DNA from: an uncultured delta proteobacterium
GTDB lineage: Bacteria > Desulfobacterota > Desulfomonilia > Desulfomonilales > Desulfomonilaceae
NCBI GenBank assembly: GCA_963789265.1
Contig: CAWBKB010000003.1
Span: 1,056,001-1,120,000 of the forward strand
DNA length: 64,000 bases
Direction: 5' to 3'
Shown here: positions 38,256-64,000 of the stretch, piece by piece
Layout: every line of letters starts with the position of its first letter
How positions within the stretch are numbered: position 1 is the first letter of the stretch
The notes under the pieces: model-generated
Told to the model about the DNA's origin: nothing
What the model saw: the letters and a program-made list of their open reading frames with translations, nothing else
Databases searched by the model: none
Made by a program: the position numbers and the translations under genes

Positions 38256-38404
38256 TGTCATTGCAAGCGGAGCGAAGCAATCTCATTGGTGGGACCGGCA
38301 TCTTGCCGGTCATTCGTCACCCCGGATCGAATCCGGGGTCCAGACTGGATTCCGGCGTACGCCGGAATGACGATTGCCTTGTCGTTTCACTCCTCGCAAT
38401 GACA
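38256..38404. repeat. Nested palindromic repeats (REP pair enclosing two other palindrome types)
   Basis: TGTCATTGCAAGC..AAGCAATCT; GACCGGCATCTTGCCGGTC; CCCCGGATCGAATCCGGGG and ATTCCGGCGTACGCCGGAAT; GATTGCC..CTCGCAATGACA. Confidence 0.8.
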
Positions 38405-60132: not shown

Positions 60133-60201
60133 TGGGGGCAGCCTAGTGCTGATTACTCCGTTTCGCGAACACGGTGACGATAGGAACTCCCGTATGCAAG
60201 A

Positions 60202-60274
60202 AGATTGCTTCGCTGCGCTCGCAATGACAGATAGCGGGAATGTCATTGCGAGGAGTGAAACGACGAAGCAATCT
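60202..60274. repeat. REP-like inverted pair
   Basis: AGATTGCTTCGCTGCGCTCGCAATGACA ... TGTCATTGCGAGGAGTGAAACGACGAAGCAATCT. Confidence 0.85.
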
Positions 60275-60336: not shown

Positions 60337-60846
60337 ATGCCCGCCAACGAGAAAGTGATCAAGATCTTCGAGTACGCGCTTAACCAGGAAAATACCGGCC
60401 TGAGCTTTTTTCAGCATTCGCTGGAGCGTTTGGGAATGGGCGCGGCCGTTACTGCGTTCAAGACCTTAATTCAAGAAGAACAAATGCATATCGCCTTCAT
60501 AACCCGAATTATCAGCGAACTTAAAGAGGATCGAGAACTTCAGCTCTCGAATATGAAAGACCTTGTTATGGAGCCAACGGACTATTTCGACGATCGCGCT
60601 CGGTCGGAGTTCCTCGAGAGGTGTATTGAGGGTTCCATGGTGCCCGATGTGACCGTTTTCAACACAGCCTGGCTCATCGAGAAGGACTTGAGCGAGTACT
60701 ACGCGGCAATGGCCGACCTAACGGAGGGGAAGGCTAAACAAGCTCTTACGATGCTCTCAAATTGGGAGAAGGAGCACGAAAAGTTCTTCCGGGAATTTCG
60801 CGACAGACTCTCTGATATTTATGCTCTAATGCCCTGGGGAGGATAA
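60337..60846 (+). CDS. Ferritin-like (rubrerythrin-family) diiron protein
   Basis: E..G..FF / EEQMH / EKD..EYY / WEKEH carboxylate-His pattern; AGGAG RBS. Confidence 0.85.
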   Translation: MPANEKVIKIFEYALNQENTGLSFFQHSLERLGMGAAVTAFKTLIQEEQMHIAFITRIISELKEDRELQLSNMKDLVMEPTDYFDDRARSEFLERCIEGSMVPDVTVFNTAWLIEKDLSEYYAAMADLTEGKAKQALTMLSNWEKEHEKFFREFRDRLSDIYALMPWGG

Positions 60847-61064: not shown

Positions 61065-62579
61065 GTGACCAAATCCATCCTGGAATATCATGACCAGACC
61101 GCATACCGGCGACATGGCATGTCGGGGCATGGACTGGATTGGGGCACTCAGCCGGACGTGTTCAAAACTTATCCCGGCTTGGAAACGATTTGTTTGCCGG
61201 AGCCAACTCCCTGGCCGACAGATAATTTGTTCACACTCCTGGAACGAGACGTTGCTCATTCGACGCCCCTGGAGATCGACCACTATTGCCTGGCCCTAAT
61301 ACTTCGCCTTACGCACTCCTTGACTGCAAAGGCCCGGCATGGCGGCGTCGATTTCTTCTATCGCAGCGTGGCTTCCGCGGGAGCTCTTTACCCGTTCGAG
61401 CTGTACGTCGGCTTGGCGAACATCCCGGGCCTAAATAGCGGGCTTTACCACCACAGCGTTGCCAGTCAAGGTCTGACCCTATTGCGAGAAGGCAACGCCA
61501 ACCTCGCTCTGGACGGCGCGGTGAAAACCCGGCGGGACACGCCCCCCGGCCTGGTCTTTTTTCTCACTTCCATATTCTACAGAAGCTCCTGGAAATATCG
61601 CGATCGCGCCTATCGGTATCATCTGCTCGATACCGGCCATTTGGCGGAAAACCTAGCCTTAGCTCTCACAGCCGCGTCTGTCCCGTTTGAGGTTCATTAC
61701 GACTTTGCGGACGAATCCGTTAACAGCCTGTTAGGAGTGGACCCGACACTCGAGGCCTGCCTGGCGATAGTATGCGCATGGAATGAGACCAGTGGCCCGA
61801 GCGACTCGGTGGACCTGACCGAGCCTGAAATCGACCTGGCGGATGCGAGCCGTGTTGCGGCAAGAGAGGCCCACTATCCTTTTATTCAAGAATTTCATTC
61901 AGCTACTTCTCCCGTGGTCGAACCTCCCCGCGACGGGCCTCGAATGCTGCACAACTTGGGACCCATCGTTAAAGAAACTGGCAAAATTAACCGCGCGGAG
62001 AAATCGCCGGAGCTGATGAACTATTCTGAAGCGGTTCTCAAGAGACGGTCCATGCGGAACTTTGTGCGGGAAGAATTGCCCGCGGACTGCATGGCGGCTT
62101 TTTTGAAAAGCCTTTGTTATGAAACGGGAGCCAAGAGCCGCTCTCAGCCGACTGGTAGCGATGTGATTTCAGTAGGGCTCCTTGTCGGAAAAGCTGAGGG
62201 ATTCGCCCCTGGCTTCTATTTGCTTGACCGCCGCCATGAGTCGATAGGTCCGGTGTGCCAAGGTGATATGATGGATCGTATGGCGCTTGTCTGCCTGGAT
62301 CAGGCCTGGTTGGCCAATTGTGCGATTCATTTCTTGTTTATCAGTAACTTGAAGCTTCTCGAAGAGAGCCGTGGCCCGCGAGATTACCGCCATGCAATGC
62401 TGTCCGCGGGCCGTCTCGGGCAACTCATCTACTTGGCGGCTACATCTATGCGATTGGGATGCTGCGGAGTCGGAGCATTCTATGATGAAGAGGCGGTAGA
62501 ACTATGCGGGCTGAACGACCAATCGAGGCTGTTGTATCTTGTGGCTGTTGGCCCGGTCAAGAAATGGTCTGTGAAATAG
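61065..62579 (+). CDS. SagB/ThcOx family FMN-dependent dehydrogenase (tandem nitroreductase domains)
   Basis: RSVASAGALYPFE, WKYRDRAYRYHLLDTGH, RRSMRNF, GCCGVGAFYD. Confidence 0.88.
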   Translation: MTKSILEYHDQTAYRRHGMSGHGLDWGTQPDVFKTYPGLETICLPEPTPWPTDNLFTLLERDVAHSTPLEIDHYCLALILRLTHSLTAKARHGGVDFFYRSVASAGALYPFELYVGLANIPGLNSGLYHHSVASQGLTLLREGNANLALDGAVKTRRDTPPGLVFFLTSIFYRSSWKYRDRAYRYHLLDTGHLAENLALALTAASVPFEVHYDFADESVNSLLGVDPTLEACLAIVCAWNETSGPSDSVDLTEPEIDLADASRVAAREAHYPFIQEFHSATSPVVEPPRDGPRMLHNLGPIVKETGKINRAEKSPELMNYSEAVLKRRSMRNFVREELPADCMAAFLKSLCYETGAKSRSQPTGSDVISVGLLVGKAEGFAPGFYLLDRRHESIGPVCQGDMMDRMALVCLDQAWLANCAIHFLFISNLKLLEESRGPRDYRHAMLSAGRLGQLIYLAATSMRLGCCGVGAFYDEEAVELCGLNDQSRLLYLVAVGPVKKWSVK

Positions 62580-62592
62580 AGAGGAGGCCGTC

Positions 62593-63435
62593 ATGGCATT
62601 CGCAACTCTAAAGAAGCTCTTTACGCCGGTGGAATCCATTGATGCCGATCAACTCAGAGCTTATTTAGCCGAACATAAAGAGGGAACTTTCACCCTGCTG
62701 GACGTTCGTCAACCGGGAGAATACAAGCAGGCTCATATTCCCGGTGCGAAACTGATCCCGATAGCGCAGTTGCCCGATCGAATGCGAGAACTTGACTCTG
62801 AAAAGCCGGTCATTGCGTACTGAGCGGTCGGCGGCCGGAGCCGAGTTGCGGCTCAATTGCTGTCAGGTCGCGGCTTTAGGGAGGTATATAACCTCAAGGG
62901 CGGAATAATGGGTTGGAATGGTCTGAAAGCCGAAGGCCCGATGGAACTGCATTTGGATATTGTGCGCGGTGATGAAACGCCGGCAGAGATCATTCGGCTG
63001 GCGTACGGGATGGAACACAGCTTGGGCGGTTTTTATCGTGCTGCAAAAACGAAAACCCTGGACGATGATCTCGCAGGCCTTTTGGAAAGGTTGATAACCG
63101 TCGAAGACAAGCACAAACAATATCTGTTCGAATTGTTCCAATCACTGGAGTCTTCCGGAATCAGCCTTGAAACCTTCGAGGCCGATGTTATACCCAAGGT
63201 CATGGAAGGCGGATTTGATACCGATGAATTCATGAAGCAAAACGAGATATTCCTGGATGACGTCCCTTCATTGCTGGATTTGTCCATGATGCTCGAAACT
63301 CAAGCCCTGGACTTGTATCTCCGCTTCGCGGACAAGAGTGAAAACCAGAAGACGAAAGAAGTTCTCTATCGCATAGGCGATGAGGAAAAGGCTCATCTGG
63401 CCGCGCTCGGCGACATGCGTGACAAGAGGTTGTAG
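62593..63435 (+). CDS. Rhodanese-ferritin/rubrerythrin fusion, probable selenoprotein (Sec77, UGA at 62821-62823)
   Basis: LLDVRQPGEY..HIPGA then PVIAY-UGA-AVGGRSRVAAQLL in frame with ORF 62857..63435; UGA occupies the rhodanese catalytic Cys position. Confidence 0.88.
62830..62864 (+). promoter_or_regulatory. Putative bacterial SECIS element
   Basis: Stem GAGCCG/CGGCTC with AGUUG loop about 20 nt after the UGA, plus lower stem GGCGGC/GCUGUC. Confidence 0.7.
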
Positions 63436-63460
63436 AAACTTTTTAAGTCCAAGGGAACGT

Positions 63461-63575
63461 TAAGAACACGGCACCGAAGAGAAGATTGCTTCGTCGTTTC
63501 ACTCCTCGCAATGACATTTCCAACACCTGTCATTGCGAGCGCAGCGAAGCAATCTTCTTCTGGACCGGGTTCTTA
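63461..63575. mobile_element. MITE-like element with TA-bounded long TIRs enclosing a REP pair
   Basis: TAAGAACACGGCACCGAAGAGAAGATTGCTTCG ... CGAAGCAATCTTCTTCTGGACCGGGTTCTTA. Confidence 0.65.
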
Positions 63576-63811
63576 TAGCGTCTGCCAAACGTAAAGTCCG
63601 TTTGGCCGCCCGATGCCAAGAATGCTGAACATACTCCGCTGTGGACGTTTAGCCGTCATTCTCGCGTACGCCGGAATTCACTGTAGGGGCATCCCTGGTG
63701 GGTGCCCGGAAGAGGGCAGACACAAGATCTGCCCCTACAGACCTCGGATCGGAGTCCGGGGCGTCCCCGCGGGACGCGGGGCAAATCGGTCAAACCTTTT
63801 GGCAAAGCCTA
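63576..63811. repeat. Adjacent composite repeat containing a GTAG-type REP pair
   Basis: Imperfect ends TAGCGTCTGCCAAA / TTTGGCAAAGCCTA; internal TGTAGGGGCA...TGCCCCTACA and CCCGCGGGACGCGGG. Confidence 0.5.
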
Positions 63812-63956
63812 TAACAAAACCGTATTTGCGAAAAGGAGTACTAAGTGCTGTGCGACCCGTGCTGATGCTGTCCTCGCCGGCTGAACCCATTGAATTAGAC
63901 CGGCTTGTGCCTTATCTTTAGTGAGTAAGAATGCTGAAATGCAATGGGGGCAATCG

Positions 63957-64000
63957 ATGAAAACTACCGTTAAAGTCACAGGAATGGCGTGCAATCACTG
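63957..64000 (+). CDS. Heavy-metal-associated (CopZ-like) protein, 3'-truncated by the window edge
   Basis: MKTTVKVTGMACNH then a partial TG codon, matching the GMxCxxC motif. Confidence 0.75.
   Translation, partial: MKTTVKVTGMACNH

Follow-up and report, generated by a model that had tools for sequence, protein, structure and literature searches.

A probable selenoprotein gene joining a selenocysteine rhodanese to a ferritin-like domain with a putative diiron site in an uncultured Desulfomonilaceae bacterium

We examined a gene in a 64,000-nucleotide stretch of DNA from an uncultured delta proteobacterium of the Desulfomonilaceae (contig CAWBKB010000003.1, positions 1,056,001 to 1,120,000; the whole stretch is called the window here, and coordinates are counted from its first letter). 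The gene lies on the + strand at 62593..63435, as do the features described below, and we are highly confident from its sequence that it encodes one 280-residue selenoprotein with selenocysteine (Sec) at the active site of a rhodanese domain. An open reading frame (ORF) of 76 amino acids (62593-62823) ends at the TGA at 62821-62823, beyond which the same frame stays open until the TAG at 63433-63435, with the TGA as its sole interruption. The original prediction, made from the sequence of the window, that two ORFs are in frame across a single UGA was correct, as was the predicted length of the product: translation with TGA as U gave a complete gene of 280 codons followed by the TAG, with U77 in the context P-V-I-A-Y-U-A-V-G-G-R-S. 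A putative ribosome-binding site, AGAGGAGG (62580..62587, read from the sequence), begins 1 nt past the stop codon (62577-62579) of the upstream SagB-type gene and lies 5 nt before the ATG. The start codon is credible because of this site and because the N-terminus, M..LKKLFTP, is the same as that of full-length homologs in the alignment. A protein database search returned 2857 homologs at E<=0.001, and among the 120 matches listed nearly all were 271-301 aa long and contained both domains described below. The database record of the window's own protein, P0011, is a 175-aa C-terminal fragment.

Rhodanese and Rubrerythrin were the only Pfam families found in the 280-aa protein, and both scored above their cut-offs, in agreement with the predicted fusion of a Sec-rhodanese to a ferritin-like domain. 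The rhodanese domain covers residues 26-109 (62668..62919; PF00581, E 3.3e-21, 76.1 bits, cut-off 22.2). The second half is a ferritin-like (rubrerythrin-type) diiron four-helix bundle at residues 132-272 (62986..63408; PF02915, 33.2 bits, cut-off 22.8). Catalytically competent rhodaneses have a six-residue active-site loop; U77, encoded by the UGA at 62821..62823, is the first residue of such a loop, and the domain would by its sequence be of the catalytically competent PF00581/COG0607 type. Within the loop, U/C-A-x-G-G-R-S, residues G80, R82 and S83 were invariant in all 121 sequences aligned, and the stretch after the TGA is therefore translated. Fold comparison matched this half to the rhodanese domains of 3nt6, 3gk5 and 5ve4 (Z 14.5-16.3), and the nearest solved structures (Npsr 3nt6, CoADR-RHD 3icr and the persulfide dioxygenase-rhodanese fusion, PRF, 5ve3/5ve4) were domains fused to persulfide-handling redox enzymes. 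No NCBIfam model scored over its cut-off: rhodanese_LYCAU (NF041203) reached 38.7 against 115 bits and TsoB (NF045694) 20.2 against 805 bits.

To place the TGA among homologs, we compared the codon for residue 77 in several samples. Residue 77 was Cys in 24 of the 25 homologs of alignment A1, the remaining entry, from the Joint Genome Institute (JGI), having W; the predicted location of the UGA at the rhodanese active site (Y-U-AVGGRS) and the expected occurrence of Cys homologs were both borne out. Eighteen of 40 relatives had the gene (E<=1e-20), and 16 of the 18 carried one in-frame TGA, which lay at the catalytic position in 15 of them in one comparison and likewise in the sixteenth, L030. 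A pattern scan of one genome per species gave 80 loci (25 TGA, 44 TGC and 11 TGT); C is part of one of the two patterns used, which biases this tally towards Cys. The nearest of these loci, at 81% identity, came from metagenome-assembled genomes (MAGs) of the Desulfomonilaceae/Desulfomonile type, and others from Desulfobaccales, Syntrophales, Desulfobacterales and single Nitrospinaceae and Scalinduaceae MAGs. We also called the gene at E<=1e-30 in 401 genomes sampled evenly across the phylum, where 99 genomes had it: 36 copies carried one TGA (window included), 1 a TAG and 62 none. In each of the 35 cases other than the window the TGA fell in the residue-77 column, at identities down to 33%, and the single TAG case had TGC at residue 77, with its stop 170 codons further downstream. 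When homologous genes were pooled (n = 121), 64 had TGA and 57 had TGC or TGT in the residue-77 column.

The genome (9 contigs, 95.6% complete) encodes selA (594 bits), selB (386 bits) and selD (360 bits), all above their curated cut-offs, together with a single tRNA-SeC(tca) at C3 c[261385,261482]. The Sec machinery on which the original prediction depended is present in these four parts. The selD gene (G000:C7:193442-194362, locus L010) has one in-frame TGA, and the selenophosphate synthetase of this genome is for this reason probably a selenoprotein itself. A possible error of TGA for TGC or TGT was looked for in sequencing reads, and contigs from two public read runs span 62821-62823 with no differences.

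A hairpin resembling a bacterial selenocysteine insertion sequence (bSECIS), GAGCCG-AGUUG-CGGCUC, lies at 62838..62854, inside the codons for R82-Q88. It has a 6-bp stem (62838-62843 / 62849-62854) and the loop AGUUG (62844-62848), whose first base is 20 nt after the UGA and whose second position is G, with U next; the isolated hairpin has an energy of -9.2 kcal/mol. The published bSECIS model, as given in the available part of PMC13188914 and its Fig. 2 legend, allows 3-9 nt for the apical loop and 4-16 bp for the stem, expects G within the first two positions of the loop, and places the element 16-37 nt from the UGA with an energy <= -7.5 kcal/mol. The window hairpin agrees with this model throughout (loop 5, stem 6, spacing 20, -9.2), and the predicted element, with its loop-position-2 G about 20 nt downstream, was found as described. 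The same published ranges were satisfied by 47 of 62 distinct Sec-form segments versus 4 of 55 Cys-form segments, and looser ones by 53 of 62 versus 7 of 55.

Conservation at synonymous sites points to the same element. We measured how often pairs that share an amino acid also share its codon (codon identity) in six-codon windows, for 30 Sec forms and 56 Cys forms. In the Sec forms codons 83-88 had an identity of 0.71 and ranked 1 of 275 windows (gene mean 0.40, standard deviation 0.06), so that synonymous sites were most conserved exactly over the hairpin, while in the Cys forms the same codons had an identity of 0.52 and ranked 13. The alignment of 30 Sec forms had 88.9% of stem cells paired versus at most 56.7% with slid partners. 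In a wider set the stem was rebuilt in other registers via synonymous sites, its forms being GAGCCG-AGUUG-CGGCUC, GAGCCGC-GUG-GCGGCUC, GCAGC-CGUGYY-GCUGC and GCAGCC-GGKC-GGCUGC. One C-G to A-U exchange was seen, in the L030 stem (GCAGCA-GGUC-UGCUGC) relative to L125. By this reading SelB with Sec-tRNA(Sec) would bind the mRNA hairpin 20 nt past the UGA, Sec would be inserted at the UGA, and the ribosome would then translate the hairpin itself.

Several results weigh against this reading. The covariation count in the 30 Sec forms gave 0 pairs changed on both sides, the stem being near-invariant. Hairpin energies differed little, at -13.6 kcal/mol in Sec forms versus -12.2 kcal/mol in Cys forms (p = 0.045, among related sequences). 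Synonymous resampling gave -9.6 (Sec forms) and -10.7 kcal/mol (Cys forms) from the peptide alone, compared with observed values of -12.6 and -12.3 kcal/mol; since GGRSRVAAQ as a peptide is itself disposed towards a hairpin, energy taken by itself hardly tells the forms apart. The fold of the 71 nt that follow the UGA was no better than that of shuffles (z = -0.13), and an Rfam scan of 62000-64000 (E<=10) returned 4 chance-level matches, none at the hairpin. Both read sets belong to a single study, and the assembly may have been made from them. The case for Sec incorporation and for the full-length protein is built on comparative sequence data.

These data have to be set beside two other explanations of the TGA. 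The codon could be a true stop, leaving either a broken gene or a 76-aa rhodanese fragment followed by an internally started ferritin-like protein. Public gene calls split the locus in just this way, the window's own 175-aa entry among them, and databases hold many 141-153-aa entries named as rubrerythrin or ferritin family; but a 76-aa piece would be without the active-site loop and half of the fold, the stretch from the TGA to the next start includes the invariant G80, R82 and S83, and the TGA has been retained in 64 genes, down to 33% identity. The short database proteins, moreover, start at an internal Met in helix A ('MIALAYGME'), like truncated calls. We regard a true stop as extremely improbable. 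It is also very improbable that an altered code or near-cognate suppression puts Trp, Cys or Gly at the UGA. A JGI homolog, P0002 (79% identity), is recorded with W at residue 77, which fits a pipeline with a TGA=Trp code; from the protein record alone, such a pipeline is the most likely source of this Trp. In the genome, however, the tRNA-SeC is the sole anticodon-tca tRNA among 48 tRNAs and the Sec machinery is complete; the only Trp codon of the 280-codon gene is TGG; and the Sec forms examined carry one TGA per gene, solely at the catalytic Cys position, where Trp would inactivate a rhodanese domain by established rhodanese chemistry. The comparative evidence strongly supports recoding of the UGA as Sec.

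We built a maximum-likelihood tree of the 121 sequences (64 Sec, 57 Cys) with the residue-77 column removed. The tree requires at least 14 Cys/Sec changes, at least 9 of them forced by well-supported branches, compared with about 40 for shuffled labels. One TGC form, L035:6222 (65% identical), is nested among Sec forms and has kept the hairpin with a single mismatch (GAGCCG-AGUUG-CCGCUC), which suggests a recent Sec-to-Cys change. A hairpin favoured by the peptide may lower the barrier to switches between Cys and Sec, and the GGRSRVAAQ hairpin, at the right distance from the codon, would explain at least 14 such switches in one family. Exchange of this frequency marks residue 77 as a working redox or nucleophilic centre.

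The ferritin-like half carries the two ExxH motifs that had been noticed from the sequence, EDKH (E171-H174) and EKAH (E265-H268). The putative diiron ligands E141, E171 and H174 were invariant in 121 of 121 sequences, and E235, E265 and H268 in all but one, which has a gap (120 of 121). Residue E205, in the loop motif MEGGF, was also invariant (121/121), and Y148, D240 and Y242 were near-invariant (119-120/121). These residues would form a complete E/ExxH/E/ExxH diiron site in a four-helix bundle. The window protein is without Cys besides the position of residue 77, and no second conserved Cys column was found in the 121 sequences. The AlphaFold2 model of the fusion, with Cys standing in for Sec, had a predicted local distance difference test score (pLDDT) of 85 and a predicted template modelling score (pTM) of 0.84, with helices in the C-terminal half. 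This half gave fold matches (Z 14-17.6) to the Dps-like PA4880, thioferritin, bacterioferritins, 2fzf and 1vjx, and profile matches to 1vjx (E 7e-08) and 2fzf (E 1.7e-07).

Upstream of the fusion gene lies a gene for a 504-aa protein with two SagB-type/nitroreductase-fold domains (61065..62579, + strand; Pfam Nitroreductase 5.7e-20, TIGR03605 138 bits). It ends 13 nt before the fusion gene, and this gap suggests co-transcription, so that the two genes are probably in the same operon. A SagB-type gene was directly upstream on the same strand at 27 of the 80 loci, including 20 of the 25 Sec-form loci. It is preceded in the window by a gene for a stand-alone ferritin-like protein of 169 aa (60337..60846, + strand; Pfam Rubrerythrin 4.8e-07), which was present at 21 of the 80 loci, 16 of them among the 25 Sec-form loci. 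A close paralogy between this neighbour and the C-terminal domain was considered and rejected, given a weak similarity of E 0.002. The order ferritin-like, SagB-type, fusion was kept in a Desulfomonilaceae-like clade only, and loci with both neighbours are not independent because they are largely one clade; gene context was accordingly rejected as a guide to function. At the loci L032-L034, from three MAGs of the same genus, the SagB-type neighbour appeared as shorter frames (207-362 aa aligned versus about 504), which could be assembly frameshifts or another interruption. For the neighbour tally one ORF was taken per side, the longest in the flanking 2.5 kb, a procedure that can miss small genes. 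ORFs with the H.H.DH motif of the metallo-beta-lactamase fold (MBL) occurred at 10 of the 80 loci, 5 of them being RNase J, and a persulfide dioxygenase was rejected as the usual neighbour.

Downstream of the fusion there is a CopZ-like heavy-metal-associated protein and a copper P-type ATPase (window 63958-64000; L012:2829-3840). Inverted repeats of 77 nt at 60198-60274 and 63483-63559, 94% complementary, bracket the three-gene cluster. We rejected these repeats as the ends of a mobile cassette because the element has 202 matches in the genome (blastn-short), 29 of them at least 60 nt long, with a third copy in the window at 38257-38282. It looks like an intergenic repeat of the repetitive extragenic palindrome (REP) or miniature inverted-repeat transposable element (MITE) kind, and the bracketing is probably incidental.

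Rhodanese-type selenoproteins have been catalogued before. The available part of PMC13188914 lists 'rhodanese-like domain-containing protein' forms 1-5, of which forms 2 and 4 are PF00581 with the motif UxxG, and catalogue tables in PMC9312934, PMC2398784 and PMC1976440 list rhodanese-type selenoproteins, including 'sulfurtransferase COG0607'. Like the fusion, which reads U-A-V-G, the proteins in these entries have Sec at the catalytic Cys position of PF00581/COG0607 with UxxG, occur in deltaproteobacterial lineages, have Cys homologs and were predicted by bioinformatics only; unlike it, they are named for the rhodanese domain alone, the comparison being one of descriptions in the catalogue parts available. 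The words 'ferritin' and 'rubrerythrin' have 0 occurrences in the available text of the reviews PMC13188914 and PMC9312934, the available passages of PMC3906813 and PMC8346489 do not describe the fusion protein, and literature searches for a rhodanese-rubrerythrin fusion found no paper on it. The fusion may already be in a catalogue under a rhodanese name. It is a new domain arrangement within a known selenoprotein class, the Sec-rhodaneses themselves being already catalogued.

Rubrerythrin consists of a diiron four-helix bundle and a rubredoxin-like FeS4 domain and is a peroxide reductase of anaerobes. The fusion shares with it PF02915, the E/ExxH/E/ExxH ligands and conserved tyrosines, an occurrence in anaerobes and a fused redox-active partner domain. 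It differs in its partner, which is an N-terminal rhodanese, in the extra invariant carboxylate E205 of MEGGF, and in having no rubredoxin-like Cys4 iron domain, as the Cys content of the window protein and of the aligned family indicates; strictly speaking it does not count as a rubrerythrin, being without that domain. Among solved structures, the rhodanese half is closest to persulfide-handling rhodanese fusions, namely BpPRF (5ve3/5ve4), Npsr (3nt6/3nta), CoADR-RHD (3icr) and a CoA-persulfide reductase (8a56), with profile E-values of 1e-14 to 1e-8, 31-37% identity and Z 14.5-16.3. In these enzymes, too, a sulfane-sulfur carrier has a covalent link to a redox centre of metal or flavin, but the partner is a metallo-beta-lactamase or a flavoprotein where the fusion has a ferritin-like diiron bundle, and in the fusion the catalytic residue is Sec. 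The likeness to PRF is confined to the rhodanese half, and the Pfam scan of the fusion gave no metallo-beta-lactamase-fold mono-iron dioxygenase domain of the PRF/CstB type. The best matches of the C-terminal half, TM1526 (1vjx), the Pyrococcus protein 2fzf, the Dps-like PA4880 (8w1d) and the Bacteroides thioferritin (2vzb), gave Z 15.3-17.6 over 136-151 residues with just 15-20% identity, and they differ from the fusion in being stand-alone proteins, uncharacterised or of iron storage, with no rhodanese.

The original prediction had proposed that the protein couples sulfur or selenium transfer to a diiron centre, an idea that is still an inference. Tentatively, and with more doubt than confidence, we favour a mechanism in which Sec77 (Cys in other lineages) would carry sulfane sulfur as a selenopersulfide, and that sulfur would serve O2 or H2O2, once activated by the diiron centre, as reductant or as substrate. 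The enzyme would be analogous to a rubrerythrin in which a rhodanese replaces the rubredoxin domain, or to a persulfide dioxygenase-rhodanese fusion, and selenium would speed the residue 77 site and make over-oxidation harder. We favour this mechanism because of the relatives of the rhodanese half, the usual chemistry of such diiron sites and the Cys/Sec exchange in the family. On the other side of the scale, the likeness of the C-terminal fold to ferritin-like proteins is generic only, and helical bundles score high generically in fold comparison. The gene neighbourhood gives the mechanism no support outside the Desulfomonilaceae-like clade: neighbours are heterogeneous, with a nitroreductase in 22 of 74 upstream ORFs and a Cu-ATPase in 14 of 79 downstream ORFs, the latter mostly in that same clade.

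The main rival to this mechanism accepts the selenoprotein but gives its two domains the task of handling iron and sulfur, or selenium, for Fe-S centres, and the diiron site would take no part in reactions with oxidants. Fe(II/III) would be kept in the ferritin-like domain, and the sulfane sulfur needed to make or mend such centres would come from the rhodanese. According to the available passages of PMC8346489, rhodaneses donate sulfur when cofactors and Fe-S centres are made. The best C-terminal fold matches include iron-storage and Dps-like proteins (Z 16-17.6). The isc, suf and nif genes, however, were not among the commonest neighbours. An intrasubunit E/ExxH/E/ExxH site with conserved Tyr, moreover, is typical of catalytic or ferroxidase diiron sites, and exchange of Cys for Sec is usually seen at redox-active residues, as the part of PMC9312934 that treats it states. 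We consider Fe-S trafficking rather unlikely. Returning to the favoured mechanism, the fusion could represent an undescribed type of selenoenzyme in which a Sec-persulfide carrier feeds a diiron-carboxylate centre and whose coding sequence was pre-adapted for recoding, a combination that we put forward as possible but doubtful.

The gene is mis-split by gene callers and often cut in two. Five public entries of 141-151 aa (P0125, P0131, P0134, P0139 and P0142), named 'rubrerythrin' or 'ferritin family', start at a Met or Val within helix A and look like truncated calls of Sec-form genes. We also considered whether the C-terminal domain occurs as a stand-alone protein, which was rejected: there were 172 shorter matches, and the 7 below 154 aa, which begin within helix A, past it or with an N-terminus that is not homologous, look truncated as judged from protein records alone. 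No curated NCBIfam model covers the family, and its Sec forms are stored publicly as truncated 'rubrerythrin' or 'ferritin family' pieces; a family model with the Sec position would probably mend many more such records.

The family is common among relatives of sulfate reducers. The gene occurs in about one in four of the Desulfobacterota genomes sampled (99/401), and about a third of the copies use Sec (36/99). It offers a clean case of how easily a selenocysteine insertion sequence arises inside a coding sequence that is already prone to fold. Two well-known chemistries, those of a sulfane-sulfur carrier and of a diiron centre, come together here in an unstudied arrangement. If the proposed mechanism is true, the reduction of O2 or H2O2 in anaerobes could be driven by sulfide or sulfane sulfur, or a diiron site could serve them for oxidising sulfane sulfur.

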